The notes beneath the pieces were generated by a model, which was given only the letters and a program-made list of their open reading frames with translations, ran no database searches and was not told the DNA's origin. Below are positions 8,088-36,442 of a stretch of 64,000 nt of DNA, in pieces. This stretch comes from Candidatus Eiseniibacteriota bacterium (lineage in GTDB: Bacteria; Eisenbacteria; RBG-16-71-46): the NCBI GenBank assembly GCA_963717505.1, contig OY970342.1:192001-256000 (forward strand), written 5' to 3'. Position 1 is the first letter of the stretch; every line of letters begins with the position of its first letter. A program made the translations under genes and the position numbers.

Positions 8088-8118
8088 GCGGACGCCGGCC
8101 CCGGTCCGCTCTCCACGC

Positions 8119-9951: not shown

Positions 9952-9990
9952 CTTTTCCCCGGAACCCCACCGCAGTCGAGGCTGCGCGAA

Positions 9991-12458: not shown

Positions 12459-12531
12459 GGCGCAGGTTTCTCCCTTGAGTGTTCGAAGATGGAGGGAATG
12501 GGTCACTGAGGCCGCGGATCGGAACTCGTTC

Positions 12532-14531: not shown

Positions 14532-14644
14532 GGCGTCGCGCGCGCCTCAATCGAAACGGCCCCTCGTTGATTCGAAGAGGAGCCGGAAGGGAGCGCGGAC
14601 GCTCCGCCGCCGGCACCTTCTCGCGAAGCGCCGTGGTCGTGTTG

Positions 14645-14758
14645 CTTCCGGGCAGGTTTCCTGGCTCAGGGCCGTTGAGGACCCATTCACAGTGGCGGGA
14701 CCGCGGGGGTTTCGCACCCCTCTTCCCTATTACCCCACTCGATGCGGGCACCCGGAAG
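14645..14758 (-). promoter_or_regulatory. Cobalamin riboswitch (compact form)
   Basis: Minus strand reads GGTGC..AATAGGGAAG..GGTGCGAAACCC..GCCACTGTGA..GAGCCAGGAAACCTGCC (B12 box), closed by CTTCCGGG/CCCGGAAG (14751-58 pairs with 14645-52). Confidence 0.92.
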
Positions 14759-14904
14759 ATTTCGTCGACAAGGTGCGCTTCGCGCGTCGCGGCAGGTCAA
14801 GTGGATTCGCGCGCGCGTCGGGAGCGCATCGGTCGCAAGAGAATCGCGTTCGAGCACCCGTGGGCAATTGGACAGCGCCATGGCGAGGCGCGAAACTGCG
14901 GAAC

Positions 14905-15402
14905 ATGACGAACCGAGAACCCATCGACCCCGGCGTCACGATCGGTCACGTCCATCTGAAGGTGGCCGATCTCGATCGCGCGCTGGCGTTCTACAACGGC
15001 GTCCTCGGTTTCGAGGTCACGGCGCGGTTGCCGGCCGCGGCGTTCCTGTCCGCGGGCGGCTATCACCATCACATCGGGCTCAACACCTGGGAGAGCCGAG
15101 GCGGCTCGCCGCCGCCGCGCGGCACCACCGGTCTCTATCACGTCGCGATTCTCTATCCGAGTCGCAAGGCTTTGGCGGTTGCCCTGCGGCGACTCGATGC
15201 TGCCGGCATTTCACTCGACGGAGCGTCGGATCACGGCGTCAGCGAGGCGCTCTACCTCCACGATCCCGACGGCAACGGGCTCGAGTTGTATCGCGATCGA
15301 CCACGCGCCGAATGGCCGCGTGACGAGGGCGGCGGCTTTCGAATGATTTCAGAGCCGCTCGACGTCGAAGCCTTGCTGCGCGAAGCCCCCGCGACCGGCT
15401 GA
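14905..15402 (+). CDS. VOC/glyoxalase family protein (CatE-like single domain)
   Basis: IGHVHLKVADL, GGYHHHIGLNTW, GLYHVAILYP, DHGVSEALYLHDPDGNGLELY. Confidence 0.9.
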   Translation: MTNREPIDPGVTIGHVHLKVADLDRALAFYNGVLGFEVTARLPAAAFLSAGGYHHHIGLNTWESRGGSPPPRGTTGLYHVAILYPSRKALAVALRRLDAAGISLDGASDHGVSEALYLHDPDGNGLELYRDRPRAEWPRDEGGGFRMISEPLDVEALLREAPATG

Positions 15403-15528
15403 GCATTCCCCCTCGGGCTGACCGCGGCCTTCGAGGACCCAGGGTTCAGACCGCCGGCTGGAGCAGCCCCAGAGAAACGCCGACAACAGGGGGCATGCCT
15501 TCCACGACCCTCCCCGCCCCCGAGACCC

Positions 15529-17384
15529 ATGTCCGGTCGCTCGTGGCTTCGGCATTTCGGCCTGCTCGGCGTGCTCGCGGTCGGCATCGGTGTCGTGCGG
15601 GCCGCTCAGCTCGCCTGGATCAGCGACGACGCCTATATCTCGTTTCGCTACGCACGCAACCTCGTCGACGGGCTCGGGCTGGTCTACAACGCCGGGGAGC
15701 GGGTCGAGGGCTACACGAACTTCCTGTGGACGGTCTGGTGCGCGCTCGGGCTGCGACTCGGTGTCTCGGCCGAAGCCTGGGCGAACGCGACCAGCATCGC
15801 GTGCTTCGCGGCGACCATCGCGCTACTGGCTCGGCTTTCGGCGCGTCGGACGGCCGACCTCGGCTTCGCCGCACCGTTTCCGCTCGCGGCGCTATGGGTC
15901 GCCCTGCAGCCCGATGCCGGCGTGTTCGCGACCAGCGGACTCGAAACCTCGCTCTTCACGTTGCTCGTGGTCGCGGGCTACACCGCGCTGGTCGGACTCG
16001 GCGGCTCCACGGATGTGAGGCGATCGGCTGCCGCCGCGGCCTTCATGGGGCTGGCATGCCTCACCCGTCCGGACGGAGTCGTCTTCGCATGCTCGGGGGC
16101 GGCTACGTGCTGCTCGTGGCGCGGCCGCGGGCCCGCGCGGCGCTGGTCTACGGCGCGGTGCTGGCCGCGATCGGAGCGCCGTTCGCATGGTGGAAGCTCG
16201 CTTACTACGGCGATCTCCTGCCCAACACCTTCTACGCCAAGTCGGCCATGATTCCCTGGTGGGATCAAGGCTGGGCCTACGCGTGGCTCTACTTCAGCAA
16301 GTACCCGCCCATGATCGTGGGGCCGGTGCTGGTGTTGCTGCTCGCGGTCCTCGGGCGCAGCCGGCGCCCGGCATCGGAGCCGGGATCCTCATCCCCGATG
16401 TCGGCCCCTGGCTCCGGGGTCTTCGGTCCCGCGCTGTTGGCCACGGCGTTCGCGCTGGCCTACACGCTCTACGTGATTCGGGTCGGCGGCGATTTCATGT
16501 TCGCGCGCCTGCTGATCCCGGCCACGCCGTTCTACGCGCTCGCGGCCGAACTTGGACTCGCGGCGTTTGCCTGGCGCGCCGTCCCCCGACGCGCCGCAGT
16601 CGCCTTCGCGATTCCGGGAGTCCTGGCGCTGGCTGCGATTGGGCTGGCGCGCGATCCGTTCGACGACGTCGGCTGGGTGCGCGGCATCGTGAACGAGCGC
16701 GCCTACTACAAGGCTCGGGATCGCGAACGGATGGCCCAGGAGGGCAAGGATCTGCGTGAGCTGACGCGCGGACTGCCGGTGCGCGCCGCGATCGTGTGCG
16801 AGCAGGCGATCTCGGCCTACTACTCGGAGATTCCGGTGGTGTTCGAGGCGTGCGCCGGTCTGACCGACTCGGCGATCGCCCACCAGAGGATCGAGAAGCG
16901 CGGCCGGGTCGGACACGAGAAGAAGCCGAGCCTCGATTACCTCATCGAGTACCGGCGCGCCCACTTCAACATCGGCGCTCATCCCGGACTCGACCAGTTG
17001 CTGGGCCCGCACATCCCGGTGATCCGGCTCCGCTATCGGACCGCCTTGGCCACGCTGCTGACCTGGGATCCCGAGCTGATGGAGGAGTTCCGGCGACGGG
17101 GTGCCGAGTTCGAGGACTTCTCGGCCTCGCTCGATGACTTCATCGCCGACATGCCGAGGTACTCGGATTCGACGGTGGCGGGGATCTACGCCCGGGCGAA
17201 ACGCTTCTACTTCTCGGGCGTGGAAGACCCGCGGCGCGAAGCGCCCTTCCTGCAGCGACTGGCTCGCGACGGGCGACTTGCCGAAGTGGGCGGCTCCGCA
17301 TCGACCGTGGCGTCGGCCGAGTCGATACCGGATTGCCCTTGCGACGGTTTCGCTGGAGCGTCGACGCGCCCTAGCGATAGGTGA
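15529..17384 (+). CDS. GT-C fold membrane glycosyltransferase (AftB-like); frameshift ~16089
   Basis: DDAYISFRYARNL..GERVEGYTNFLW, SGLET, LTRPDG, then YYGDLLPNTFYAK, GGDFM, GLTD..IA, GHEK in the second frame. Confidence 0.75.
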
Positions 17385-20070: not shown

Positions 20071-22050
20071 GTGCTCGAACGATTGCGGGCGGTCCTGATC
20101 GGCGGTCCGAAGAACTTCCTCGACCCCCGCATCCATCACGCGCTGGCCCTGGTCGCCTTCTTCGCCTGGGTCGGTCTCGGCTCCGACGGACTCTCGTCGT
20201 CGTGCTATGGACCCGAGGAGGCGTTTCGCGAGCTGGGTCGCCATCGCCACCTCGCGCTCTACCTGGTCGTTGCGATTGTCGGGACCGTCTTCCTCATTTC
20301 GGCCTCGTACAGCTACATCATCGAGTTGTTCCCGACCGGCGGCGGCGGCTACCTGGTGGCGACCAAGCTGCTGGGACCGACGCCGGGCGTGGTCTCGGGT
20401 GGTGCGCTGGTCGTGGACTACATCCTCACGATCGCGATCTCGGTTGCCTCGGGGTGCGACGCCATCTTCTCTTTCCTGCCGGAGGTCTGGCACGTTTTCA
20501 AGCTCCCGGTCGAGCTGGTGGTCGTCGCCACCCTGAGCAACATGAACGTGCGCGGGGTCAAGGAATCCATCTTCGTCCTGACCCCGATCTTCCTCGGCTT
20601 CATCCTCAGCCACATCGCGCTGATCCTGGTGGGCACCTTCGGGCACGCGACCGCGTTCCCGACGCTGATCCAGGACACCATGATCGACACCCGCGGCGCC
20701 ATCGACGAGATGGGCATGATCGGCGTCGCGCTGGTCTTCCTGCGCGCGTTCTCGCTGGGCGGCGGCACGTTCACGGGCATCGAGGCGGTCAGCAACAGCA
20801 CCGAGATCCTGCGCGAGCCGCGCGCGGTCACCGGGCGACGGACCATGCTCTACATGGCGATCTCGCTGGCGTTCACCGCCGGCGGCATTCTGCTCAGCTA
20901 CCTGATCAACGACGTTCACCACGAGACCGGCAAGACGCTGAACGCCTCGCTGTGGTCGACGTTGACTTCGGGCTGGCAGATCGGCGGCTGGAACATCGGG
21001 CCGGGGGTGGTGGTGTTCACCCTCCTCTCGGAGGGGGCGCTGCTGTTCGTCGCCGCGCAGACCGGGTTCATCGCGGGTCCGCGCACGCTGGCGGCGATGG
21101 CGGTCGACAACTGGGTGCCCAAGCGTTTCAGCCATCTCTCCGAGCGACTGGTCACCCAGAACGGGGTGCTCACCATGGGACTGGCCGCTGCGCTCACTCT
21201 GCTCTATACCGGCGGCTCGGTGCGACTGCTGGTGGTCATGTACTCGATCAACGTGTTCCTGACCTTCACGCTGACCCAGCTCGGCATGGTGCGGCACTGG
21301 ATCAACGTGCGCAGCGAGGTCGTACACTGGCGGCGCCGCCTTACCGTGGCGTTGCTCGGCACCGGCGTGACCGGTGGCATTCTGGTGGTGACCACGGTGG
21401 TCAAGTTCCAGGAAGGCGGCTGGGTGACGTTGCTGGCGACCGGAGGCTTCGTCGGCTTCTGTTTCATCGTTCGCACGCACTATCGGCGCGTGCAGAAGCT
21501 ACTGTCGTCGCTCGACGAGGTGCTGACCAACATCCCGATGCAGGACCCCAAGGAGCAGCCCGAGCTTGACCCCGAAGGCGCGACCGCGATCGTGCTGGTC
21601 GAATCGTATCGTGGGCTCGGGATTCACACGCTGCTCTCGATCCATCGCATGCTGCCGCGGCACTTCAAGAACTTCGTGTTCTGCTCGGTCGGCCTGGTCG
21701 ACTCCGGTCAGTTCAAAGGGGTTCGCGAGCTGGAAGCACTCGAGCAGAAAGTGCGGAAGGATCTCGAGAAATACGTCGCGCTCGCGAATCGAATGGGGTT
21801 CTACGCCGAGTATCGCTTTACCATGGGCACCGACCTGATCCAGGAACTCGAGGGTCTCTGCCTCGATCTGGTCAAGGAATTCCGGAAGCCCGTGGTGTTC
21901 GCCGGCCAGCTCGTGTTCCAGCGTGAGAACCTATTCACGCGTACGCTGCACCACGAGACTGCGTTCTCGATCCAACGCCGGCTGCAGTTCGCCGGCATTC
22001 AGGTCATCATCCTGCCGATCCGCGTCTGGGAAAAGAAGCGGTCGGCGTAA
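20071..22050 (+). CDS. APC-superfamily permease, KimA-like potassium/amino-acid transporter
   Basis: GSDGLSSSCYGPEE, GGGGYLVA, VDYILT, TGIEAVSN, about 12 TMs plus a cytoplasmic C-terminal domain. GTG start inferred. Confidence 0.85.
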   Translation: MLERLRAVLIGGPKNFLDPRIHHALALVAFFAWVGLGSDGLSSSCYGPEEAFRELGRHRHLALYLVVAIVGTVFLISASYSYIIELFPTGGGGYLVATKLLGPTPGVVSGGALVVDYILTIAISVASGCDAIFSFLPEVWHVFKLPVELVVVATLSNMNVRGVKESIFVLTPIFLGFILSHIALILVGTFGHATAFPTLIQDTMIDTRGAIDEMGMIGVALVFLRAFSLGGGTFTGIEAVSNSTEILREPRAVTGRRTMLYMAISLAFTAGGILLSYLINDVHHETGKTLNASLWSTLTSGWQIGGWNIGPGVVVFTLLSEGALLFVAAQTGFIAGPRTLAAMAVDNWVPKRFSHLSERLVTQNGVLTMGLAAALTLLYTGGSVRLLVVMYSINVFLTFTLTQLGMVRHWINVRSEVVHWRRRLTVALLGTGVTGGILVVTTVVKFQEGGWVTLLATGGFVGFCFIVRTHYRRVQKLLSSLDEVLTNIPMQDPKEQPELDPEGATAIVLVESYRGLGIHTLLSIHRMLPRHFKNFVFCSVGLVDSGQFKGVRELEALEQKVRKDLEKYVALANRMGFYAEYRFTMGTDLIQELEGLCLDLVKEFRKPVVFAGQLVFQRENLFTRTLHHETAFSIQRRLQFAGIQVIILPIRVWEKKRSA

Positions 22051-22061
22051 CGGAGACACTC

Positions 22062-22840
22062 ATGTACACGATCGATCTCTCCGGCCAACACGCGTTGATC
22101 ATGGGCGTGGCCAACCACCGCAGCCTGTCGTGGGCGATCGCCCAGTATCTGCACCAGGCTGGCGCCAAACTCGCGCTGACCTATCAGGGCGACCGGCTCA
22201 AGTCCATGGTCGAGGAGCTGGCCAAGCCGCTGGTCGACGTCCAGCTCATCGAATGCGACGTCACGCGCGACGACCAGATCGACGCGGTCGCCAAGCGCCT
22301 GGGCGAGACCTGGGGCTCGATCGAAATGCTGGTCCACGGCATCGCGTTCGCGCGCAAGGAGGATCTCGAAGGCGACTTTGCCGCGACGTCGCGCGAGGGC
22401 TTTCAGTTGGCACTCGAGATCAGCGCGTATCTCTCTGTCTGAACGTCACGAACCGATTGCTGCCGTTGCTCGAGAAGAACGGCGCGAGCATCGCGACCCT
22501 GTCCTACCTGGCCGCCGAGCGCGCGGTGCCGAGCTACAACGTGATGGGCAGCGCCAAGGCGGTGCTCGAGCAGATCGTGCGCCAGCTCGCGTTCGAATTC
22601 GGTCCCAAGAACATCCGGGTCAACGCGCTGTCGGCCGGGCCGGTGAGCACGCTGGCCTCGCGCGGCATCCAGGGTTTCGTCGGCATGCTCAAAGGCCACG
22701 CAGAGAAGGCGCCGCTCAAGCGCAACATCACCAAGGAAGAGGTCGGCAAGGCCGGACTGTTCCTGCTCACGGACTTGTCGAGCGGCATCACCGGCGAGAC
22801 GCTGTACGTCGACGCCGGGTATCACATCATGGGCTGGTAG
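22062..22840 (+). CDS. fabI: Enoyl-ACP reductase; frameshift ~22432
   Basis: GVANHRSLSWAIA, CDV, HGIAFA, EISAY, then YNVMGSAK, RVNALSAGP, GITGE..YVDAG in the other frame. Confidence 0.9.
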
Positions 22841-23056: not shown

Positions 23057-23260
23057 ATGAGGAAGCTCGTCGTCAAAGCCGTCGCCATCGCTCTGGCCCT
23101 GGCAGCGATTCTGCCGGGGATCAGCGCGGCCAAACTGGCGTCGAATCACAACCGCACCCTGCTCAGGGTGGTCGCCATCGCTCTGGCGCTGGCAGCCATT
23201 CTGCCGGGGATCAGTGCGGCCAAACTGGCGTCGAATCACAACCGGACGCTGCTCGGCTAG
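23057..23260 (+). CDS. 67-aa secreted peptide precursor with two identical units VAIALALAAILPGISAA-KLASNHNRTLL
   Basis: Strong SD AGGAGG, ATG 23057, basic N-terminus plus hydrophobic core. The repeat copies differ only at synonymous sites. Confidence 0.85.
   Translation: MRKLVVKAVAIALALAAILPGISAAKLASNHNRTLLRVVAIALALAAILPGISAAKLASNHNRTLLG
23081..23254 (+). repeat. Tandem 84-nt repeat with 90-nt period (23081-23164, 23171-23254)
   Basis: 79 of 84 nt identical; all 5 mismatches are third-codon synonymous. Confidence 0.95.
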
Positions 23261-25744: not shown

Positions 25745-28700
25745 ATGAGCCTCGGCGCTCGTGCTTGCCTGATTGGGCTGATCGTTCAGGCATTCGCCAT
25801 CTCGTCCACTCCCCGGGCGCAGACTCCGCCACCGGTCACCCCGCGATTCTCCCCGGTTCTTCTGGTGCCTCGGCCGGCGCGCAGCACCGGAGCGGAATGG
25901 GATTCGCTCGAGCGCTTCGAGCGCACCGGACGTTGGGCCGCCTCGGAGAGTTTGGCCACCACATTGATCCACGCGTCGGAGGCTGCCGGAGCACGAAAGG
26001 ATTCCCTCGACTACTCGCGCGCGCTCTTCTACTTCGGCAACTCAAGGCTCATGCGCCGGCTTTACGCCGACGGCCGCGGATTCGAGTCCCTCGAGCGGGG
26101 CATCGGCATTCGCGAGCGCCGGGCCGGAGCCAACGACACGCTGTGCACCTGGGCTCACGTGAAGGCGGCGACGCTCTATCCGGAGGCAGGAGACCCTGAT
26201 CTCGGTCTCGCGCACGGAGAAGTCGGCTTGCGAAGGCTGCTGGCTCGAACCCCAACCGACACCTCCATGCTGGCGCAGGCGCACCTCGCGGTGGCGGCTG
26301 CCCTGATCGCACTCGGTCGCGACGCCGAAGCCGGCCCGCATTTCGAAGATGCCCTCCACTTTCGCGAGCGTGCCGATGCGGGCGAGGGGCGGCTCATGGT
26401 GCCGATGCTCGCCGAGTACGGAGGCTACTTGTCGCGAGCCGGAGAGCTCGATCGTGCGCGAGCCATGCTGCAGCGCGCCGTGCGCATCGCCGAGCACGAT
26501 CCCAACCCCGGATCCGATTTCTACGCCCAGTCCTTGGGCCGGCTGTCCTCGTTCGAAAATCGGGTCGGCAACGTCGCCGAGTCGATCGAGCTCGCGTGGC
26601 GTGCCTACGACGCCTCGCGTCGCCTGGGGGAAATCACGGTGCCCGCGCTGCGGGCGCGCACGGTGCTCGCCTATCGATTGCAGGATTTCGGCGACCCGCA
26701 AGGCTCGGTTGCACTGCTGCGCGAGATTATTCCGGGCCTCGAGACTACGGTCGGGGCGAACAACGCCCAGACGCTCAATGCCCGACTTGCGCTGGTCTGG
26801 GCCCTCATCGAGATCGGCGACACGGCGACGGCCGAGCGTGAGCTCGCGGCGGCGCGGCCGGCGTTGGCCACTCAGAATCCCAGGACCAGCAACAATCCGG
26901 TGTATGCGATGCAGCTCTCGGGCGACCTCGCGGGCCTGCGCGGCTTCCACATTGCCGCCCGCGAGACGCTGGCAGGCGCGGTGGCTCTCGAGCGAGTCCG
27001 GCACGACCCCTTCGGAGCCCGCGAGGCCGTCCTGCTGGCCCACCTGATGGACAACCTGCTCGAGCCCGCGGATCGCGACCGCGTCCTCGAGGTCGGGCGG
27101 CAGATCGACCGCCTACGCGACAGCACGCACGTTCGCGCCACCCCCGAGTGGCACACGCTACTCCTGGCTCGCGGGTCGGCGGAAGGGCGAGTGGGCCTGC
27201 AAACGGCGGCATGGGAACACGCGCTCGAGGCGGAGCGACTGTCCCGGGAACTCCTCACCTATCAGTTGGAGGCGTTGCCGGACGTGCGCGGGCTCCAGCT
27301 GGCGCGCGCGCTCGGCGGGCCGTGCGAGCTGCTGGCCGCGCTCGTCAATCCTGACTCGGCGGGCCGCGTGGCGACCGCCTGGGACCGCATCGTGCGCTGG
27401 CGCGGCGTCGTCGGCCACGAGATCGCCCGTCGCCGGGCTCCGGTCGCCGCCGCGAGCGACAGTGCCCTGGCTGCCGCCCATGCGCGATGGGTGTCCGCGC
27501 AGCGCCAGCTCGCCCAGCTCGTGGTCAGCGGGGCCGCGCACCCGGACGACCCGGAGAGCGCCGAACGCTTCTCTGCGGCGTTCCAGCGCGCCGAAGATGC
27601 CGAGCGTGCGTTCCTTCGCTCGGCGCGTGGCTCGGTCCCGGCGGATTCGGTGGCGGGGCTCGATCTTGTCCTCGACCAGCTCGATCCGCACCAGGCTCTG
27701 ATCGCGTTCACGGTGGCCGACCGCGGGGCGGGTCCCCCCAACCTCGGGGCGTTCATCGCCGACGGTGGCGAGCGACAGCCGCGCTGGATCACGCTCGGTC
27801 CGCTCCCGGAGATCGAGCACGACATTCGATCGTGGGTTCGGCTGCTGGCAGCGCCCCCCACGGCCGACCGCGATGGCGAACGCGCGTGTCGAGAGCTGGG
27901 ACAGAAGGTGCGCTCGCGGGTGTGGGATCCCGTCCGGCGCGCGGCGGGGAACGCCCGCGAGCTGATCCTGGTGGCGGAAGGCGTGGTGACCGAGCTTCCG
28001 TGGCTCGCACTCCCTGAGCCCCATGGGAAGTACCTTGCCGACACACCGCTGATCGTGCGTCTCGTGGATGCAGAACGCGACCTGCTGCCGGATCGATCGT
28101 CGACCGCCGAGGGTCGTGGTCTGCTCGCGGTCGGTGGCCCGAATTTCGGAACGCCGGAAGCCGCGGGCTCGGTGGCGCTGGCATCCGCAGGATCTGAACA
28201 CCGGATTCCGCCACGTTCACCGTGCGTGCCCCGGGCCTTGTCCCTGTCCGAGCTGCCGTCGGCACGGCGCGAGGCTGAGGGCATCGCTCGCTCGTGGCCG
28301 ACTCCCGATGGACCGTCGGATCTGCTGGTGGGCGCCGAGGCCAGCGAGTTCGCACTCAAGACCCACTCTCCGGGCAAGGCCGTGATCCACGTGGCGACGC
28401 ACGGCGTCATGCTCGACGATACCTGCCGCGCCGCCGGGCTTCCGGGCACGCGGGGACTGGGTGGCGTCGAGCCGCTCGACTCTCCCACCGCGAAGCCCGC
28501 ATCCCCCAAGCTCAAGAACGTGGCGCCGCCGACACGACCCGCGCTCCCCGACCCTTGGCTGGCCCGACGCGTCTGGCTCGCGCTCGCCGGCGCCAATCGC
28601 CCCGTACCCGACAGAGCCGACGAGAACGAGGGCCTGTTGACCGCCGAAGAAGTGGTCACGCTCGATCTGCGGGGCACGCAATGGGTCGTGCTCTCCGCCT

Positions 28701-28981
28701 GCTACTCGGGCGCCGCGCAGAGCTGGGCGCGCGAAGGGGTCCTGGGCATGAACCGGGCGTTTCATCTCGCAGGCGCCCGCGCGGTCATCGCCAGCCGATG
28801 GGCGGTCGGCGACGAGTCGGCAACCGAGTGGATGACCGCGCTCTATGAATCCCGCGCGCGGCACACGAGCGCCGGTGCGGCAGTGGGCGAAGCCTGCCGC
28901 ACTGTGCTCGCCAGGCGCCGCGCGCAGGGCCGCACCACGCATCCCTTCTATTGGGCGGCGTTCAGCGCCACCGGCGACTAG
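25745..28981 (+). CDS. Exported TPR-CHAT (caspase/separase-like) protease
   Basis: Signal-like N-terminus, TPR-like repeats, LPWLAL, catalytic HVATHG and VVLSAC, ASRWAVGD, HPFYWAAF. Confidence 0.9.
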   Translation: MSLGARACLIGLIVQAFAISSTPRAQTPPPVTPRFSPVLLVPRPARSTGAEWDSLERFERTGRWAASESLATTLIHASEAAGARKDSLDYSRALFYFGNSRLMRRLYADGRGFESLERGIGIRERRAGANDTLCTWAHVKAATLYPEAGDPDLGLAHGEVGLRRLLARTPTDTSMLAQAHLAVAAALIALGRDAEAGPHFEDALHFRERADAGEGRLMVPMLAEYGGYLSRAGELDRARAMLQRAVRIAEHDPNPGSDFYAQSLGRLSSFENRVGNVAESIELAWRAYDASRRLGEITVPALRARTVLAYRLQDFGDPQGSVALLREIIPGLETTVGANNAQTLNARLALVWALIEIGDTATAERELAAARPALATQNPRTSNNPVYAMQLSGDLAGLRGFHIAARETLAGAVALERVRHDPFGAREAVLLAHLMDNLLEPADRDRVLEVGRQIDRLRDSTHVRATPEWHTLLLARGSAEGRVGLQTAAWEHALEAERLSRELLTYQLEALPDVRGLQLARALGGPCELLAALVNPDSAGRVATAWDRIVRWRGVVGHEIARRRAPVAAASDSALAAAHARWVSAQRQLAQLVVSGAAHPDDPESAERFSAAFQRAEDAERAFLRSARGSVPADSVAGLDLVLDQLDPHQALIAFTVADRGAGPPNLGAFIADGGERQPRWITLGPLPEIEHDIRSWVRLLAAPPTADRDGERACRELGQKVRSRVWDPVRRAAGNARELILVAEGVVTELPWLALPEPHGKYLADTPLIVRLVDAERDLLPDRSSTAEGRGLLAVGGPNFGTPEAAGSVALASAGSEHRIPPRSPCVPRALSLSELPSARREAEGIARSWPTPDGPSDLLVGAEASEFALKTHSPGKAVIHVATHGVMLDDTCRAAGLPGTRGLGGVEPLDSPTAKPASPKLKNVAPPTRPALPDPWLARRVWLALAGANRPVPDRADENEGLLTAEEVVTLDLRGTQWVVLSACYSGAAQSWAREGVLGMNRAFHLAGARAVIASRWAVGDESATEWMTALYESRARHTSAGAAVGEACRTVLARRRAQGRTTHPFYWAAFSATGD

Positions 28982-28982
28982 G

Positions 28983-31499
28983 TCATCGCACCTTCACGAT
29001 TCGCGCGCTGGCGTCCGAGTTCGCAGTGCGGACCCGCGCAAAGTACACGCCTGGGGACGCCTCCCGACCGTTCTCCTCACGGCCGTTCCACGACAGAACG
29101 TGTTCCCCCGCGGTAAGACCTCGGCGGCAAAGGACCCGAACCCGCCGACCCGACAGGTCGCACAGTTCCACGGTCGCCTCATCCGCGACCGGCATGGAGA
29201 TCACGAGCTGGGTGGCGTCGTGCATCGGATTCGGGCGCGCGGAGAGTTGGATCATCGACGACGACAGCCCCGGTGATTCGTCGACACCGACCAGGGGCGC
29301 CTCGAAGCCGGCGATTCTGCCCTGGCGACGTTGCGACATGAAGTCGAACTCACCGCCAACATAGATGGCGCTGCCGACCCGCGCGATGACCCACACCGCG
29401 TCACTGGCGTCGGGATTCCAGTCCTCGAGAGTGCCGTCGGCCGCCTGAATGGTCGCCATCCGATGGCGCGTCTGACTCGCGATCGTTGAGAAGCCGCCAC
29501 CCACGAGAACGCTACCCCCGTCGACCTCCAGCGCCTGGATCCAGCCGTCCACCTCCCCGGCATTCCAGGCAGGTTTCGCCAGTCCGTTCGCGACTTCGAG
29601 GGCAGCGACCCGGTCGCGATTGAGCCCGCCGATGTTCGAGAAGTAGCCACCGACATACATCGTCCCACCATCGATCTCGAGGGCGCGCACAAAGTTGTTG
29701 GCGTTCGGGCTCCATCCGGTGAGGGCGTCGCCGGCGGAGGCGTCGAGCGCCGCAATGTAGTTGCGATTGCGGCTGCCGATGTTGGTGAAGTCGCCACCGG
29801 CGTAGACGATGCCGCCGCTGGCCGCCAGTGCATGAATCGGTGCATTGGCACTGGGATCCCAGGGCCTGACGTCGCCGGTCGTGGCGTCGATCGCCGCCGC
29901 ATTGGAGCGCGGGAAACCGTTGACCTGGGTGAACTGTCCGCCCGCGTAGACGGTGCCGCCGCTGATCGCGAGTGCGTAGGCTGGGCCATCGGCCATCGGG
30001 GCCCAGTCCGTGGGCACTCCCGTGTTCGCATCGATGGCGGCCAGGTATCCACGAGGCTGACCGCCGACGGACGCGAACCATCCGCCCGCGTACACGGTGG
30101 AGCCTTCGAGGGCGAGCGACGTCACCCAGCCCCCAAAGATTCCGATCCCGCGCACGTCCGGGTTCCAGGGTTTGGGCGCACGGGTGGCGAGGTCGATGGC
30201 CAGCAGCGCGTTCCGTTTCAGACCGCCAACATGCATGAAGATCCCGCCCGCGAAGACCGTGGATCCGCTCAAAGCGCACGCGTGCACGGTTTCGAACGGC
30301 GCCGGATCCCAGGCTCGGGGCGCTCCGGTCGCCAGGTCGACAGCTCCGAGATGGCGTCGCACTTCCCCACCGATCGAGGTGAAGTATCCACCGAGATAGA
30401 GCGTGCTTCCATCTCGGGTCATGGCGTTGACCCGTGCGGCCGCGCTCAGATCAGGGTTCCAAGCCAGGAGGCCCCCCGAGCCATTGATCGCCGCAAGCCC
30501 GTTGCGCTGGATTGAGTTGAGGAACGAAAACGCCCCGCCGGCAATGAGCGTCGGTCCGTTGACGATCAACGAATACACCGGGCCGTCGGCGACCGGCCAC
30601 CACGTCGTGGGTGTGTTGGTGGCGCCGCTCGTCAAGTTGAACGAGGCAAGATGCCCCCGAGGCTGTCCGCCGATGTTGTCAAAACTACCGCCCACGTAGA
30701 GCGTGGTGGAGGCCGAGGGAAACACCACGACTCTCACGGCCAGGGAGCTCACGTACTGATCCGGGTTCGGCTGCCATCCGGTCGGATCACCGGTGGCGGT
30801 GTCGATGGATCCAAGGTGAAGGCGGCTCTGGCCGCGAAGGGTCGTGAAATATCCGCCGACGTAGATCGTGCTGCCCAGCGGCAGAATGGCACGCACCGTC
30901 TGGTCGGCATTGGGATCCCATCCGGTCGCGAGCCCCAGCGTGGTGTCGAGCGCCGCGATTCGGTTTCGGTCCTCACCGCCGACGTGGGTGAATTCCCCAC
31001 CGACGTAGAGAACGCCCCCGCTCAAGGCCAGCGCGTGGACGGGCGCATTCGCGGCCGGATTCCAGGACGTGAGATTGCCGAGGGCATCGATGCGCGCCAG
31101 CCCATTGCGCACCTGGCCCGCCACCGAAGTGAAAGAACCCCCGACGTACCAACCGCCAGCGCCGTCCGCGGTGACGGCGCTCACGATGCCACCGAAGTAC
31201 TCACCGCTCGGCATGGCGCCTTCGATCATCGGATAGGGCATCAGCGGCTGCCCAGTGGTGACATCGATGCCACACCCGGCTCCCGTGTTCGGTGCGATGT
31301 GCGAGAACACGCCGCCGACGTAGAGCGTGCCCCCGGTCTCGACCATAGCCCTCACGGTCCCGTCCACGGACCACAGGTCGGTGATCGGGGTCTGCGAGGC
31401 AGCCACGGATGGAATACAGAGAAACATGAACAACGAGAGTGCGGTCCGAATTCCTCGATCCCGCGCGTCCGGAAGCCCGGCAAGCCGACAAGAGCGCAT
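28983..31499 (-). CDS. Secreted multi-repeat beta-propeller protein with C-terminal FlgD-Ig domain
   Basis: About 14 repeats of W.P...V.AL......YVGG.F..IGG..R..LAA.D, and RPNP..GRRVRVL..WNG..PGVYF. Confidence 0.85.
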   Translation of the reverse strand: MRSCRLAGLPDARDRGIRTALSLFMFLCIPSVAASQTPITDLWSVDGTVRAMVETGGTLYVGGVFSHIAPNTGAGCGIDVTTGQPLMPYPMIEGAMPSGEYFGGIVSAVTADGAGGWYVGGSFTSVAGQVRNGLARIDALGNLTSWNPAANAPVHALALSGGVLYVGGEFTHVGGEDRNRIAALDTTLGLATGWDPNADQTVRAILPLGSTIYVGGYFTTLRGQSRLHLGSIDTATGDPTGWQPNPDQYVSSLAVRVVVFPSASTTLYVGGSFDNIGGQPRGHLASFNLTSGATNTPTTWWPVADGPVYSLIVNGPTLIAGGAFSFLNSIQRNGLAAINGSGGLLAWNPDLSAAARVNAMTRDGSTLYLGGYFTSIGGEVRRHLGAVDLATGAPRAWDPAPFETVHACALSGSTVFAGGIFMHVGGLKRNALLAIDLATRAPKPWNPDVRGIGIFGGWVTSLALEGSTVYAGGWFASVGGQPRGYLAAIDANTGVPTDWAPMADGPAYALAISGGTVYAGGQFTQVNGFPRSNAAAIDATTGDVRPWDPSANAPIHALAASGGIVYAGGDFTNIGSRNRNYIAALDASAGDALTGWSPNANNFVRALEIDGGTMYVGGYFSNIGGLNRDRVAALEVANGLAKPAWNAGEVDGWIQALEVDGGSVLVGGGFSTIASQTRHRMATIQAADGTLEDWNPDASDAVWVIARVGSAIYVGGEFDFMSQRRQGRIAGFEAPLVGVDESPGLSSSMIQLSARPNPMHDATQLVISMPVADEATVELCDLSGRRVRVLCRRGLTAGEHVLSWNGREENGREASPGVYFARVRTANSDASARIVKVR

Positions 31500-31566
31500 G
31501 AGGTTCCCCCTCTGGGAAAACGCCCACCCGGATGGCGGGGCAGTTCTCCGCGCATCGGGCTCAATG

Positions 31567-31596
31567 CTTCCTACGTTTCGGGGGACCCGTCCGAAC
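31567..31596 (-). promoter_or_regulatory. Putative ECF promoter GTTCG-N16-CGTAGG(AAG), copy 2
   Basis: Minus strand GTTCG-gacgggtcccccgaaa-CGTAGGAAG in the gap upstream of ATG 31499. Confidence 0.65.
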
Positions 31597-31601
31597 ACAC
31601 T

Positions 31602-32997
31602 TCACTGGCCTGCCGCGGTCTCGACCTCGAGTGCGTGCTCGTCATCGACCCGCACGCGCTCGAGCGGGCCGATCAGCCGCGCCCGCACGCGCCACAACAG
31701 GAACGCGGCGACACCCGCCAGACCGGCGACGAAGCCCCACCACAGGCCGACCACGCCACCGCCCTCTCGAAAACCGAGCCACAGGCTGACCGGCATGCCC
31801 ATCAGCCAGAAGCCGAGGATGTTGACCACCATCGGAGCCCGCGTGTCGCCGATGCCGCGCAGGATCCCGGTCGCCACCACCTGCAGGCCGTCGAACACCT
31901 GGAACACGCCGGCGATCGGGATCAACGCCGCGGCCACCGCCACCACCCCCGGCACCGAGGTGTAGAGCCGCGCGAGCAGCTCGGGGATTGCCAGCATCAT
32001 CCCGGCGCAGGCGCCCATGAACACGGCGCCCACGATCAGCGCCGCGGTCGCAACCCGTCGCGCCTGGAGCGCGTCGCCCTCGCCCACCGCGTGCCCGACC
32101 ATGACTGATGCCGCGCTCGAGACGCCGAGCGGCACCATGAAGGTCAGCGACGCCAGGTTGATCGCGACCTGGTGGCCGGCCACCGACTCGGTGCCGAACC
32201 AGCCGGCGAGCAGGGCGATCACGGCGAAGGCGCCGAATTCGAGCGTGAACTGGATGCCGATCGGCGCCCCAATTCGCAGCGTGCGCCACATCGGGCCGGC
32301 GCGCAGCGTGTCGCGATCGACCGGCAGCAGAATTTCCCTCAACCGCCGCCAGGTCAACGACACCAGCAGAACCAGCATGAACCAGCGGCCGATCACGGTC
32401 GCCAGCGCCGAGCCGGCCGAGCCCATCGCCGGCGAACCCAGGTGCCCGAACACGAAAGTCCAATTCAGTCCCAGGTTCAACAGGTTGGCGGCGACGATGG
32501 TGATCACGATCGCCCCGACCTGGCGCATCGCCTGCAGGCTCTGGCGCAGTACGACCACCACGAAGAACGGCAGCATGCCCGGAATCGAGATCCAGACGAA
32601 CCTCGCGGCCAGCGGTACCACGTCGGCCGGCTGCCGCAACGCACCGAGGATCACATCGGCCGGCAGGCACAGCAGGGCCGCAGGCAGACTGAGAAGCACG
32701 CCCGAGCGCGACCCCGCGTTGTACGCCGCGCGCGACCGCGCGCGTGTCGCGGGCGCCGACCGCCTGCGACACGATCGGGTCCACGGACATCAAGCAGCCC
32801 ATGCCGAACGCTGCCAGCCCGAAGAAGTAGAGATTTCCGAGCGCGACAGCGGCCAGGTCGCGGGCCGAGACCCGCCCGACCACGATGGTGTCGACCACGC
32901 CCATGAGCATGAGCCCGACCTGGACGGCGACGATCGGCACCGCGAGCCGGAAGAGCGCGCGGGTGTCGGCGGCGGTGGGCAGGAACGTGCGGAGCAT
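31602..32997 (-). CDS. MATE family efflux transporter (NorM-like); frameshift ~32700
   Basis: LAVPI..MGVVDTIVVGR..LAAVALG, QAVGA, AGHQVAIN..FMVPLG, FQVFDGLQ..GILRG.GDT. Confidence 0.88.
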
Positions 32998-33041
32998 GGG
33001 CCGGGAGTGGTCTCAGAACCGGCCCGGCCGGCGCAACTCCT

Positions 33042-33068
33042 GTTCGTCCGCCGCCCCTCGGCCGTAGG
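33042..33068 (+). promoter_or_regulatory. Putative ECF promoter GTTCG-N16-CGTAGG, copy 3
   Basis: GTTCG-tccgccgcccctcggc-CGTAGG, ending 7 nt before ATG 33076. Confidence 0.65.
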
Positions 33069-33075
33069 TGCTTTC

Positions 33076-33849
33076 ATGGGACGTATCCTCCTCGAGCTTC
33101 GTGCCCGCTGGTCGGCCCACTTCGCAGACTGGGAGTGTTCAGGCGGCCATTACGATCGGGCCGAGCGCATGCTACGGGCCGCTCTGGCGCTGGCCGAGCG
33201 CGCGGGGTCGGATCCTTCGCTGCGCCTGGCGCTGTTCAACAGCCTCGGAGTCGTCCACAAGTACCAGGCACGTTACGCAGACAGTCGACGAGCCTACCGC
33301 GAGGCACTCATGATCGTGCGCGCCCAAATCGGACGCGAGCACCCTCTGCCCCCGGCGCTCTACCACAACCTGGGCGGGCTCGAGCACGCACGCGGGAGAT
33401 TCGCGCGTGGCGAAGTGCTGGCGCGCCGCGGACTCGCCCTGCGCGAGCGCGCGCTGGGTCGCGAGCACCTCGACGTGGCCCGCGATCTGGAGGCGTTGGC
33501 CGCCATCGTGGATGGGCGCAAGCGGCATCGTGAGGCCGAGGCGCTCCACCGGCGAGCGCTCGCCATTTTCCAGCACCGACTTCGGGCCGAGCATCCGGAT
33601 ACGGCCGCCGCACTCGCCAATCTGGCGGCGTGCCTTCACTTCCAGGGGCGCTCGACCGAGGCCGAGTGTGTAGGCCTGCAGGCCGTGGCCATGAGCCGCA
33701 GAATCCTGGGCGCGACCCATCCCGAAACCCAGGCGGCCGAGGCGAATCTTGCCGTCATCCAGAGCACGCGCGTCCCCGGCCGCGGCTCCGAGGAAGTGGG
33801 GCCGACCCTCGGGGCGCCGCTCGGTTCGCCCGCGCCGACTCGGCTGTAA
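33076..33849 (+). CDS. Tetratricopeptide repeat protein (TPR_12 / kinesin-light-chain type)
   Basis: Repeats of the form NSLG..A..I....G.EHP..A..NL. Confidence 0.85.
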   Translation: MGRILLELRARWSAHFADWECSGGHYDRAERMLRAALALAERAGSDPSLRLALFNSLGVVHKYQARYADSRRAYREALMIVRAQIGREHPLPPALYHNLGGLEHARGRFARGEVLARRGLALRERALGREHLDVARDLEALAAIVDGRKRHREAEALHRRALAIFQHRLRAEHPDTAAALANLAACLHFQGRSTEAECVGLQAVAMSRRILGATHPETQAAEANLAVIQSTRVPGRGSEEVGPTLGAPLGSPAPTRL

Positions 33850-33936
33850 GGCTGCCGGCGCGCAGCCTCGTACTCCTGCGCTGATCGGCAAACACAGCGG
33901 ATTCCCAGAGCCGCAGCCGGGGGCTAGAATCGGCGT

Positions 33937-34545
33937 GTGCCGCCCCCTCCCGAAAGGGCTGATCCTTCGACGACCAGCCCGGTGCTCTCGACCCGGGAAC
34001 TCCTGCGACTCGCCAAGGACGGCGACTCGCTCGCGCAGGAGCGTCTCTTCGCCCGCTACCTGCCCCGTCTGGCCCGCTGGGCGAGCGGCCGCCTGCCGAT
34101 GTACGCCCGCTCGATGCTCGACACCTCGGATCTGGTCCAGGAGACCCTGATGCGGGTGTTCACCGGGCTCGATCGAATCGAGGTCCGCGGGCCTGGTGGT
34201 TTCCAGGCCTATGTTCGCCAGGCGGTGCTCAACCGTATCAGGGATGAAGTGCGGAAGGCCGCCCTGCGGCCCGGCCCGGACGGAGTGCCCGAGTCGCTGC
34301 CGGATCCGGCGGCTTCGCCGCTCGAGAATGCGATCGGCGCCGACGTGCTCGAGCGATTCGAGCGGGCGCTAGCCACGCTGGATGAAGACGATCAAGAGGT
34401 GCTGCATCTGCGCATCGAGCTCGGCTTCGAATACCAGGAGATCGCCGAGATGACCGGACGACCGAGTCGCGACGCGGCGCGCATGGCGGTGCAGAGAGCC
34501 CTGGCGCGACTGGCGGAGGGAATGGCGGTGACTCATGAGCGCTGA
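33937..34545 (+). CDS. ECF sigma factor, kinase-associated type
   Basis: Sigma2 LFARY..DTSDLVQE..NRIRD, sigma4 YQEIAE..AVQRALARL. Overlaps the kinase start; no anti-sigma gene nearby. Confidence 0.92.
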   Translation: MPPPPERADPSTTSPVLSTRELLRLAKDGDSLAQERLFARYLPRLARWASGRLPMYARSMLDTSDLVQETLMRVFTGLDRIEVRGPGGFQAYVRQAVLNRIRDEVRKAALRPGPDGVPESLPDPAASPLENAIGADVLERFERALATLDEDDQEVLHLRIELGFEYQEIAEMTGRPSRDAARMAVQRALARLAEGMAVTHER

Positions 34546-36238
34546 CCAGGACCTGTTCCAGCATCTGCTCGACTCGGTTTCGGACGGCAAGCCGGTCCAC
34601 GACGACGCGGGGCGGAACGCCAGCGAGCCCATGCGCGCGCGGATCGCGGCGGTCCATCAGCTGGCAAGAATCTCCGAGTTCAACCGCCGGCTCCAGCAAG
34701 TACCCGCAACACCCTCCCCCGAGCGATGGGGCGGGCTCGTGGTCCTCGAGCCGATCGGCGTCGGGTCCCGCGGCCACGTGTTCCGGGCCTGGGATCCGAC
34801 CCTCCAGCGCGAGGTCGCGCTCAAGCTGCTCCGCCCCGGATCCGACGAAGGCACGCTCATGGACGAAGGTCGCGCCGCAGCGCGCATCCGCCATCCGAAC
34901 GTCGTCACCGTGCTCGGCATCGACCGCCACGACGGACAGATCGGGATGTGGATGGAGCTGGTGCGCGGCACGAGCCTCGAGCAAGAGGTTCGCGACCGCG
35001 GCGCGCTCGCGGCTCGAGACGCGATCCAGACTCGGACTTCAGATCGCCTCGGCCCTGGCCGCGGTCCACGCCCAGGGGATCCTCCATCGCGACATCAAGC
35101 CGGCCAACGTGATCCGCGACTCCGAGAGTCGGTTCGTGCTCGCCGACTTCGGGCTCGGCCGGCGTTGGAACCTGGAAGCGCTCGAGTCCGCGGCACCCTC
35201 GGGCACACCGATGTACATGGCCCCGGAGCTGCTCGCCGGAGGCCCGGCGACCGAGCGCACCGACGTCTACGCGCTGGGCATGCTGCTTTGGTTCGCGCTC
35301 GCGGGCCGACATCCCTTCGAAGTTGGCTCGCTGGACGAGCTGTCGAGGCTGGCCCGGCTCGGCCCAAGACCCCGGCTCCGCGAGATACGCCCCGATCTCC
35401 CAGAGGCGCTGGTGGCGGTGGTCGAGCGCGCGATCGCTCCCGAGCCCCAGGCCCGCTTGGCGCGGGCTCGCGATTTGGAAGAGGCGCTGAAGTCGGTCTC
35501 GATTCCGGTCGCATCGACGACGCGGTGGCGGGCGCCGATCTTCGCCGCCGCGGCCATCCTCATACTCGTGGTCGCGGCGGCGTGGTTTGCGCTGCGGCCG
35601 TCTGCGCGCAGCACCCCCGACGTGGCGTCGCCGCCTGCCGGAACATTGATTCAGCCCGCGATCTTCGACATCGAAGCCTCGTTCCTGCGGCGCGACTCGC
35701 GAGGCTCGACCCGGCTACTGACCGGGGATCGGGTGCGGCCCGGGGATCGACTGTCGCTCGAGGTCCACGCGACGCAACCGATCTGGGTGTACGTGCTCAA
35801 CGAAGACGAACGCGGCGAGCACTTTCTGTTGTTCCCTCAGCCGATCTTCGACGTCAGGAACCCGCTCACCGCGAATTCCGACATCGTCCTGCCGGGACCG
35901 ATCGCCGGTCGAGAGAACGCGTGGACGGTGACCAGTGCCGGCGGTCGTGAGCACTTCCTGGTGGTCGCCGCGCTCGAGCCAGTGGCCGAGCTCGAGTCCG
36001 AGCTCGCGCATCTCCCGGCCGCCGAGCCCGGTCGGCCGGTTCGCTACGCCGAGCGTGTCGCCGCCCACGATTCAGGTGTTGCGCGGGGTCGGCGGCGTCG
36101 AGGAAGCGCCGGCGGAGCCGACCTCCCCAGCCGGAAGCCGCACGGGCGTTCGATCGCTTCCGATCGCTGGCCGGCCGCGAATCCGAGGTGCGCGGGGTCT
36201 GGGTGCGCCAGGTGGTGCTCGAGAATCCCGCCCCCTGA
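34535..36238 (+). CDS. Membrane Ser/Thr protein kinase with extracytoplasmic DUF4384-like domain; frameshifts ~35030, ~36050, ~36145
   Basis: IGVGSRG, VALKLL, HRDIKPANV, ADFGL, GTPMYMAPE, DVYALG, one TM, GDRL..VYVLNED..LLFP. Reconstructed end ..LRGVGGVE..GVWVRQVVLENPAP*. Confidence 0.85.
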
Positions 36239-36442
36239 ACCGCGGCGTCGTGCGCAACGTTCCAACAATTTGCGTTCCCTCCCCCGGGGCGGTCCACCCA
36301 CCCCTTCCACTGGGCGGCCTTCGTCGCCAGCGGCGAATAGGCGCCCGGACGCCGCCGGCCCCCGGGAATAGCGGGGCGGGGCCGGCGTACAGGACTCCGA
36401 ACGGCGCGGTTCCTTGCCCGCCGCGCCGACACGGAGGAAGCC

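Follow-up and report, generated by a model that had tools for sequence, protein, structure and literature searches.

A matching and co-varying loop motif in the TPR-CHAT protease and the membrane kinase of an ECF sigma factor module in Candidatus Eisenbacteria

Related systems and the sigma factor-kinase-protease module

Extracytoplasmic function (ECF) sigma factors have been described under the control of TPR-CHAT proteins, which combine tetratricopeptide repeats (TPR) with a CHAT protease domain, and of protein kinases. In Craspase, the TPR-CHAT protease Csx29 cuts Csx30, which binds the ECF sigma factor RpoE, and some Csx30 C-terminal domains are DUF4384 domains (bioRxiv 10.1101/2022.08.17.504292). 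In DdvA-DdvS, a periplasmic TPR-CHAT protein is fused to an anti-sigma factor, and it has been suggested to cut its own flexible linker in trans (PMC11506125). ECF43 sigma factors become active only when a kinase encoded next to them phosphorylates a Thr residue in region 2.2, and CHAT proteins occur in the gene neighbourhood of group ECF54 (PMC8999054). Here, we describe a locus of a Candidatus Eiseniibacteriota genome (one contig, 4.16 Mb, 67.7% G+C) at which an exported TPR-CHAT protease, an ECF sigma factor and a membrane Ser/Thr kinase are encoded within one window, the whole stretch of 64,000 nucleotides that was analysed (G000:C1:192001-256000). The protease carries the sequence RGLGGVE in a loop beside its active site and the extracytoplasmic tail of the kinase carries RGVGGVE. 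Our data suggest that this motif is very probably a real functional link between the protease and the kinase.

The module mixes elements of Craspase, DdvA-DdvS and the ECF43 systems, and the matching, co-varying loop is its new feature. A literature search, outside which most subscription journals and supplements lay, returned no paper on a sigma factor-kinase-CHAT module or on the common motif. With Craspase the module shares the TPR-CHAT architecture (Csx29, 8eey_B, is a Foldseek match at E 6.6e-12), the genetic coupling to an ECF sigma factor, a flexible linker as the place of the cut in the Craspase substrate, and DUF4384, which is found in some Csx30 proteins and here in the kinase ectodomain. 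Craspase differs in being cytoplasmic, bound to Cas7-11 and activated by target RNA, whereas the protease studied here has a signal peptide and sigma factor and kinase neighbours; moreover, Csx30 is anti-sigma-like, whereas the candidate partner here is a kinase that would activate the sigma factor by phosphorylation. The mapped Craspase sites lie after Met or Leu and not Arg (PMC11506125), and in the available text a matching motif inside Csx29 is not described.

DdvA is likewise a periplasmic TPR-CHAT protein in an ECF sigma factor pathway, and two structures of it, 8rw5 and 8rot, rank with the best fold matches. However, DdvA has a zinc anti-sigma domain and a membrane helix in one chain with TPR-CHAT, whereas the CHAT protein here is a separate exported protein in which Pfam recognizes TPR and CHAT only, and the sigma factor is paired with an anti-sigma factor there and with a kinase here. 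As far as the available text goes, cleavage by DdvA was never observed and a common motif is not reported. The ECF43 pairs EcfP-PknT and EcfK-PknS resemble the present locus in having the sigma factor gene directly upstream of a membrane Ser/Thr kinase gene and a Thr in place of the Ala of the canonical DAED element of region 2.2; a protease partner or a DUF4384 ectodomain is not described for them in the available text, and the acidic residues of the element are kept here.

Separase, which cuts itself and is held by the pseudosubstrate securin, is the best fold match of the protease (9hn0_B, E 1.1e-12) and cuts after Arg; its recognition residues precede the cut, whereas here the residues before the Arg vary and the conserved part follows it, and sequence identity is 9-12%. 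The separase site is (S/D/E)xExxR (PMC11506125), and orthocaspases cut after positively charged residues (PMC6426788).

The sigma factor of the window is encoded as follows.
33937..34545, plus strand: ECF sigma factor gene (Sigma70_r2, r4_2, Sigma70_ECF), overlapping the start of the kinase gene
34120-34131, plus strand: region 2.2 element D-T-S-D, placed by alignment

The ECF sigma factor, the kinase and the CHAT protease form a conserved module in Candidatus Eisenbacteria. A survey with the kinase ectodomain as query against 206 genomes of the phylum found the kinase in 86. From the 134 listed kinase places the 60 top-ranked were fetched, with ten truncated places or places on very short contigs skipped, and together with L001, a second locus of the source genome, and the window they make up 62 loci (L and G are our labels for loci and genomes). 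A sigma factor gene lies directly upstream of the kinase gene in 52 of these 62 loci (no search aimed at anti-sigma factors was made). CHAT genes are present in the fetched stretch at 35 of the 62 loci, within 1.5 kb of the kinase gene at 31, directly downstream on the same strand at 24 of the 53 loci where 3.5 kb or more is available, and at 26 of the 34 loci that extend 5 kb or more to either side of the kinase gene. A CHAT protein (E<=1e-10) was found in 82 of the 86 kinase-bearing genomes versus 55 of the 120 without the kinase, figures that are descriptive as the relatives are non-independent. The four kinase-bearing genomes without CHAT (G045, G181, G190, G198) are 60-91% complete. In the window the CHAT gene lies 5.5 kb upstream of the kinase gene; at L068 and L091 a CHAT gene of the window type stands right beside the sigma factor-kinase pair.

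In the 52 kinase-adjacent sigma factors region 2.2 reads D/E/A-T-x-D in place of the canonical DAED, with the Thr invariant (52/52). The possible likeness to ECF43 concerns gene order and this element, the Thr of which is a likely phosphorylation site.

The motif in the protease loop and in the kinase tail

The features of the protease gene, all on the plus strand, are these.
25745..28981, plus strand: TPR-CHAT protease gene, called product of 1078 residues (P0011) in an open reading frame (ORF) of 1099 residues
28400..28402, plus strand: catalytic His codon (H886, HVATHG), an invariant column in the alignment of 115 sequences
28427..28558, plus strand: insert between His and Cys (residues 895-938), predicted by AlphaFold2 to be disordered, with the motif at its start
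28451..28471, plus strand: RGLGGVE copy in the protease (R903-E909), in the frame of the CHAT ORF
28700..28702, plus strand: catalytic Cys codon (C986, LSACYS), an invariant column in the same alignment

The protein starts with a signal-peptide-like segment, continues with a TPR superhelix and ends in a CHAT domain of the caspase fold. Pfam found TPR families and CHAT and nothing else in the 1099-residue ORF, and the CHAT match (PF12770) covers profile positions 2-289 of 289 with E 2.1e-47 and 162.4 bits against a cut-off of 24. Translation of window 28421-28501 gives ..LPGTRGLGGVEPLDS.., with the Arg codon starting at 28451, and RGLGGVE begins 17 residues past the catalytic His, in the reading frame and at the place that an earlier note on this DNA had given for it. 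That note had taken the motif for a part of a low-complexity insertion, which does not hold: the motif is conserved, and a variable linker begins with it. We took the 120 best CHAT relatives, many of which are named Candidatus Eisenbacteria or Eiseniibacteriota, and aligned 115 of them, leaving out five truncated proteins of 632-895 residues. R903 and G906 have no exceptions in this alignment, and conservation of G904 is 90% or more. The motif is followed by a linker rich in Pro, Ala and Ser, which differs in length and sequence among the 120 relatives, and then by a conserved SPWLGRRVWLALAGAN. The catalytic His motif was recognized by pattern in 110 of the 120 relatives, and 91 of these 110 have [RK]GxGG about 20 residues past the His; most of the other 19 read RG[VI]GA, RGVGE, RG[VI]GV or similar. 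The catalytic dyad is kept throughout, with H886 and C986 invariant in the 115 sequences and both residues present in 57/57 CHAT proteins of the fetched loci.

Two non-catalytic cysteines, C827 (28223-28225) and C894 (28424-28426), are also invariant in the 115 exported CHAT proteins. C894 lies eight residues past the catalytic His and just ahead of the motif, and a disulfide between the two in the periplasm may hold the start of the loop in place. The acidic residues D1023 and E969 are invariant too and are candidates for the S1 pocket. The CHAT gene is abutted by a gene on the minus strand (window 28983-31598) for a secreted beta-propeller protein with DUF5122 repeats and a C-terminal FlgD-Ig-like domain, the latter accounting for most of its widespread matches. 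A relative of this protein follows the orthologous CHAT gene in L068 (L068:15465-18404, plus strand), and ORFs of about 200 residues with the same C-terminal domain follow CHAT genes in L039, L040, L042 and L045; these proteins may be members of the regulon or further partners.

The kinase gene reads in four segments on the plus strand.
34535..35027, plus strand: segment 1, N-terminal region and N-lobe (Pkinase profile 3-100; orthologue tblastn 34508-35011)
35028..36047, plus strand: segment 2, one frame on (Pkinase 133-253, DUF4384; tblastn 35025-36128)
35085-35108, plus strand: HRD motif (HRDIKPAN), in segment 2
35142-35153, plus strand: DFG motif (ADFG), in segment 2
35538-35594, plus strand: membrane helix, in segment 2
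about 35733-35978, plus strand: DUF4384 ectodomain (PF14326; E 1.8e-11, 44.4 bits against a cut-off of 27)
36048..36130, plus strand: segment 3, a further frame on, with the tail loop ..SVSPPTIQVLRGVGGVEEAPAEPTSP.. and RGVGGVE at 36082-36102
36131..36238, plus strand: segment 4, back in the frame of segment 1, helix and C-terminal strand ..RGVWVRQVVLENPAP, stop at 36236-36238

As expected of a Hanks-type kinase, the gene has a match to PF00069, in two pieces, and the HRD and DFG motifs; an uninterrupted reading frame is absent here. Reading of the frames and tblastn place three one-base frame changes, near 35027, near 36047 and near 36125-36131, each of which resembles one surplus base relative to the relatives, and three orthologous kinases reproduce the same frame pattern over the window kinase. 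Thus, the frameshift near 36050 on which the earlier note had relied is real, and it is one of three and not the only one. Translation of 36052-36132 gives ..TIQVLRGVGGVEEAPAEP.., with the Arg codon at 36082, and the kinase ends with ..AFDRFRSLAGRESEVRGVWVRQVVLENPAP in the frame of segment 1; within segment 4, 36149-36226 is 69% identical to the C-terminus of an orthologue (tblastn).

The source genome holds a second, intact module at 2.62-2.64 Mb (L001; G000:C1:2620001-2640000, minus strand 8049-17322), consisting of two tandem CHAT genes (1177 and 1041 residues), a sigma factor gene and a gene for a kinase of 606 residues, the tail of which reads ..SVSPEAMASLRGIGGMMEALS.., a linker and ..DVWVWQMVLLNREN. 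The loops of all three proteins, the two CHAT proteins and the kinase, read RGIGG[ML]. The orthologues of the window kinase in L068, L083, L086, L087 and L091 end with ..LRG[VI]GG[VL].., a linker and ..AFDRF.ALAGRE..V.GVWVR..L.NP. (L087, from the unpublished genome G073, is one of these five orthologues, of the 62 loci and of the 52 sigma factors; its omission alters no conclusion, and it is absent from alignment A2 and from the structure models.) Because the same tail is found in the intact paralogue of L001 and in the orthologues, the frame-1 peptide at 36082 is, as judged from these sequence comparisons, the genuine kinase tail, and the RGVGGVE that had been placed there after a reconstruction of the reading frame stands.

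The motif is also conserved in the kinase family across the phylum. RGIGG[ML] was present in 8/8 of the first kinase homologues, and in 58/58 ectodomains of the phylum the motif Arg (R168) is invariant, with both flanking Gly residues at least 90% conserved. A profile of the ectodomain matched 3975 of 1.84 billion representatives at E<=0.001, 1440 at <=1e-10 and 810 at <=1e-30, the last being clusters at 50% identity. Among 147 newly listed cluster representatives, 104 have a strict RG[IVLM]GG, 39 a loose form and four neither; three of these four read RGIEGV, RGTGGI and RGVGEL. A search with 10 ectodomains led to 17 loci, 12 titled Candidatus Eisenbacteria and five 'bacterium' or 'uncultured bacterium'; at least 11 of them were already in our set, and no lineage was added. 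Conservation of the motif in orthologous CHAT proteins and kinases, a check that the earlier note had proposed, therefore has a positive outcome (Arg in 115/115 CHAT proteins and 58/58 ectodomains).

In the six-frame translation of the 4.16-Mb genome RG[LVIM]GG[LVIM][ED] occurs six times, two of them the copies that lie 7.6 kb apart here; looser RGxGG-like strings number 51. In the 82 sources (the 80 fetched loci, L001 and the window) neither a third motif-bearing family nor a further conserved neighbour was found. RG[IVL]GG[VLMI] has 12 other matches in these sources, all in Arg-rich frames that look non-coding, and one of the 12 is the frame-1 tail of the window kinase itself.

The 80 fetched loci include 20 CHAT loci away from kinases, a small and non-independent sample. 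Seven CHAT proteins from six kinase-negative genomes (G130, G041, G092, G106, G119 and, with two, G068) have lost the motif or carry a degraded form of it and have kept the His and the Cys, and this comparison of sequences suggests a link between the presence of the kinase and the copy of the motif that the protease itself carries.

By crude hydropathy counts, 84 of 107 CHAT proteins have a signal-peptide-like N-terminus, and 86 of 88 kinases have a membrane helix that separates the kinase domain from the ectodomain; with these signal peptides and membrane helices, both copies of the motif would lie outside the cytoplasm. The AlphaFold2 model of the window CHAT protein has a mean predicted local distance difference test score (pLDDT) of 88.6 and a predicted template modelling score of 0.88, with a TPR superhelix at residues 50-627 and the CHAT domain at 640-1078. 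Its residues with pLDDT below 50 (895-919, 922-926 and 935-938) belong to the stretch 895-938 at the start of which the motif lies. Foldseek gave a probability of 1.00 for separase, DdvA and Csx29, the best solved matches of this model, and a phmmer search of the CHAT domain sequence against solved structures gave no match. In the model of the L068 kinase ectodomain (pLDDT 81.4) a run of beta-strands at residues 31-131 is probably the DUF4384 sandwich, a fold class read from the strand pattern; a fold search with the DUF4384 ectodomain returned no solved structure at E<=0.001. A short helix ends just ahead of the motif Arg, the loop 169-183 has pLDDT below 50, and a helix (185-197) and a last strand (206-214, pLDDT 95) follow. 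As both loops are extracytoplasmic and predicted to be disordered, the protease could reach them, and invariant residues in loops modelled as disordered are the signature of a short linear motif that is read by something else. A complex prediction for residues 300-1059 of the L068 CHAT protein and residues 28-215 of its cognate kinase ectodomain scored 0.00, which counts neither way.

Next to being conserved, the two loops co-vary. We compared 14-residue windows (R-2 to R+11) of the protease and kinase loops in 27 pairs encoded within 1.5 kb of each other with 10,000 shuffles of the partners; L052 and L077, where HxxTHA escaped the His pattern, and L034 and L067, where the CHAT protein is without the motif, were left out. 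Since the shuffles ignore relatedness, the significance of the following counts is overstated.
All positions except R: 151 identities in cognate pairs, shuffle mean 110.6, reached by 0 shuffles
Core, +1 to +5: 97 identities, shuffle mean 79.9, reached by 0 shuffles
+6 to +11: 44 identities, shuffle mean 23.0, reached by 0 shuffles
All positions except R, 18 dissimilar pairs: 96 identities, shuffle mean 72.1, reached by 1 shuffle

With L052 and L077 added, the cognate CHAT protein ranks first of 29 for 6 of the 29 kinases and among the top three for 13, with a median rank of 5. Departures from the consensus are matched between partners: both proteins of L070 read RSIGGL, L088 has RGIGLL and RAIGLL, L061 has RGVTRI and RGVSAI, and RGIGGMAE and RGIGGMAPA are found in both partners of L062 and of L073, respectively. 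Partners that are encoded on different contigs also match, with RGIGLLV in both in G027 and RGVGGMAPA in both in G076. Within the source genome, the window pair shares ..GGVE and the L001 pair shares RGIGGM. At positions with the same amino acid the codon is identical in 85/186 cases in cognate pairs (0.457) and in 1874/4041 in non-cognate pairs (0.464), and the 42-nt motif segments of partners share 14-30 of 42 bases. This lack of an excess of codon identity in cognate pairs suggests that the matching is caused by selection on the protein and not by gene conversion, which the codon test and the nucleotide identity rule out. A direct DNA repeat between the two motif regions was also considered and rejected, as the blastn matches amounted to one of 15 nt and to the 40-nt CHAT 3'-end relic described below. 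Together, the conservation in both families and the co-variation, the second check proposed in the earlier note (0 of 10,000 shuffles reach the observed value), bear out its claim that the two copies are functionally linked and no coincidence.

Candidate readers of the motif

Combining these data with the described systems, we suggest a model in which the active site of the CHAT protease reads the motif, and in which the protease's own copy acts as a gate and the kinase tail as the substrate; we give this model an even chance of being correct. The window has one copy of the module, which would serve envelope signalling and consists of an ECF sigma factor with an invariant region 2.2 Thr, a single-pass Ser/Thr kinase and an exported TPR-CHAT protease. 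The outer part of the kinase is a predicted DUF4384 beta-sandwich followed by a flexible loop that begins with L-R-G-[IV]-G-G-hydrophobic, a helix and a final strand, and the protease insert starts with the same element, R-G-[VIL]-G-G-hydrophobic. In the model, this element would be a short linear recognition motif tuned pair by pair. The following steps are proposed: (i) the CHAT active site would bind the motif, with the copy in the protease insert serving self-processing or as a pseudosubstrate gate and the copy in the kinase tail as the target in trans, (ii) the cut would free the C-terminal helix and strand, both of which come after the DUF4384 strands in the structure model, and this would alter the state of the ectodomain and change the output of the kinase, and (iii) the next target would be the sigma factor, with the kinase phosphorylating its Thr in region 2.2, as for ECF43-type sigma factors. 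Active-site binding, cleavage and its place after the Arg, the effect on the kinase and phosphorylation of the sigma factor are steps that we infer. The mechanism inferred in the earlier note, in which R|G is both the self-processing site of the protease and its target on the kinase, is thus plausible. The CHAT active site is the simplest reader because the dyad is always kept, the Arg is invariant like a P1 residue (the residue before the cut) and several relatives in the clan cut after basic residues; from the alignments, the invariant Arg would fit the P1 residue of a clan CD protease.

Several observations weigh against a cut by the CHAT active site. With the Arg as P1, the conserved G-[IV]-G-G-hydrophobic block is on the prime side and the residues before the Arg vary, which is atypical for clan CD: the residue just before the Arg is T, L, S or A in CHAT proteins and mostly L in kinases, and in the CHAT and kinase loops the separase context (S/D/E)xExxR is absent, with no conserved acidic residue three places before the Arg. 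The likeness of partners extends to +6 to +11, beyond what is usual for a protease site, and in sequence terms would fit an extended docking strand better. The claim of the earlier note that relatives in this clan cleave after Arg holds for separase and for the orthocaspases, with their cuts after positively charged residues, and fails for caspases, which cut after Asp, and for craspase, the bacterial TPR-CHAT protease with mapped sites, which follow Met or Leu (PMC11506125, PMC6426788). In both AlphaFold2 monomer models the loops are simply disordered, with no result that shows cleavage or a loop in the active site. The conservation and co-variation have exceptions as well: two of the 31 adjacent CHAT proteins (L034 and L067) are without the motif, three CHAT proteins of G148 (about 84% complete) and G024 keep it in genomes where the ectodomain query matched no kinase, and the cognate CHAT proteins of L039 and L040 rank 25th and 29th of 29 because they read RA.GA while the kinases keep RGVGG. 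To these is added the disregard of relatedness in the shuffles. Finally, the kinase of the window is broken three times in the assembly, and the window copy may thus be non-functional.

TPR domains commonly bind extended peptides, and a docking or mimicry mechanism without cleavage explains the sequence data about as well as cleavage does. In such a mechanism the TPR groove or the DUF4384 domain would read the motif, the two copies would compete, and a switch of partners would couple the states of the protease and the kinase. The co-varying match up to +6 to +11 suits an extended peptide in a groove; the conserved block would be on the prime side if the Arg were P1; the seven CHAT proteins of kinase-negative genomes that lack the intact motif are expected if its sole role is to talk to the kinase; and DUF4384 is often fused to protease domains (Kato et al., bioRxiv 10.1101/2022.08.17.504292, in its available part). 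However, the dyad is kept in all 57 CHAT proteins of the fetched loci, which means that proteolysis has a part in the system, the invariant Arg, in a disordered loop next to the active site of a clan CD protease, has the classic look of P1, and in the kinase model the loop is not docked on DUF4384 (pLDDT 36). We regard docking as possible but rather unlikely. A third factor, e.g. another periplasmic protease or a sorting or modifying enzyme, could instead read or cut both loops as co-regulated targets. Nothing physically ties the motif to the CHAT active site, and exported proteins with a common loop could use one processing enzyme. This idea is improbable in our view, as genomes with several modules would, by the reading of the loops, need one such factor per module (L068 versus L078 in G090, the window versus L001 in the source genome) and none of the 82 sources provides a further motif-bearing family or conserved neighbour.

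The likeness could also be structural or historical and have no common reader, either because each loop has its own need in folding or export or because the kinase tail derives from a CHAT fragment kept by recombination. The relic of a CHAT 3' end just past the window kinase indicates that CHAT DNA has been rearranged next to kinase tails, and in both proteins a hydrophobic strand with Trp follows the loop (VWLAL in the CHAT protein, VWVRQV in the kinase). Both loops are, however, predicted to be disordered, synonymous codon identity is no higher in cognate pairs and their segments are alike at only 14-30 of 42 bases, and matched lineage-specific changes, unlinked genes included, need selection on both proteins; a likeness of this kind has, in our judgement, little probability. 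A chance resemblance of Gly/Arg/Val-rich peptides could be suspected in a genome of 68% G+C that has the 51 looser RGxGG-like strings mentioned above, with the second copy, which needs frame corrections, being read from a wrong frame. It is refuted by the invariant Arg in 115 and 58 homologues and by the tails of the intact paralogue and of the orthologues, which confirm the frame-1 reading, and the motif also co-varies between partners; we consider chance to be extremely improbable.

Returning to recognition by the CHAT active site, we tentatively suggest a more specific form of it, which we think possible but doubt, namely that the loops are a pair-specific address code. The loop of the protease, as a pseudosubstrate, would hold the protease shut; an envelope signal received via the TPR domain would free it, only the matching loop of its own kinase would be cut, the strand would be released and the sigma factor Thr would be phosphorylated. 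If this were true, paralogous modules in one cell would be insulated by the differences between their loops, and the sequences of hundreds of uncultured bacteria would show which protease acts on which substrate and with what specificity.

Very few bacterial CHAT proteases have a known natural substrate, and few ECF sigma factors that are activated by kinases have a known input signal. With this module, an enzyme and its target can be named as candidates, together with a putative site of about six residues, and the matched loops of paralogous modules and of many genomes offer natural specificity variants in a family that, with 810 clusters, is large. The finding brings together three themes that had been described apart: control of ECF sigma factors by TPR-CHAT proteins, phosphorylation of ECF sigma factors and DUF4384 as a protease partner.

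Assembly state and possible decay of the window copy

The source genome has a completeness score of 86.7% despite being one contig, and two further genes of the window are split. A FabI-like enoyl-ACP reductase gene (window about 21990-22840, plus strand) is distributed over two frames with a shift near 22420, the first part ending with ..LALEISAYLSV, and a MATE-type efflux gene (window 31602-32997, minus strand) has a shift near 32700, with its first approximately 100 residues in one frame and the other 365 in another. FabI-type genes are usually essential, and the split of this one suggests that the assembly contains indel errors. With both genes split in a single-contig genome of this completeness, assembly indels are a serious possibility for the kinase gene as well. 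Three shifts within one 1.7-kb gene are nevertheless many, and the kinase may be broken in the cell. None of the public sequencing runs contains the organism's own stretch (best share of words 0.12). In contigs of relatives from public runs the base is missing at 36047 and at 36130, a weak observation that comes from one contig each at a depth below 5.

A further feature lies just past the kinase gene.
36287..36340, plus strand: relic of a CHAT gene, its last 17 codons and stop (GRSTHPFHWAAFVASGE and a stop codon), 48 nt past the kinase stop

The relic and the 3' end of the window CHAT gene share 83% identity over 40 nt (blastn), and the relic agrees with the CHAT family consensus GRSTHPFYWAAF.A.GE. 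The pattern HP[FYW][YFHW]WA[AGPS]F occurs three times in the genome, in the relic and at two true CHAT ends. The relic occupies the place that the downstream CHAT gene has in most loci and has the look of a remnant left by a deletion of roughly 3 kb. Taken with the frame changes at three places in the kinase gene, it raises the possibility that the window copy of the module is decaying.

Elsewhere in the window, a signal-peptide-like segment of about 30 residues (..VAIALALAAILPGISAAKLASNHNRTLL..) is present in two tandem copies in one frame at about 23060-23260 on the plus strand. The VAIALALAAILPGISAAKLASNHNRTLL repeat lies just upstream of a large ORF that starts at 23214 and may be a tandem duplication or an assembly artefact.

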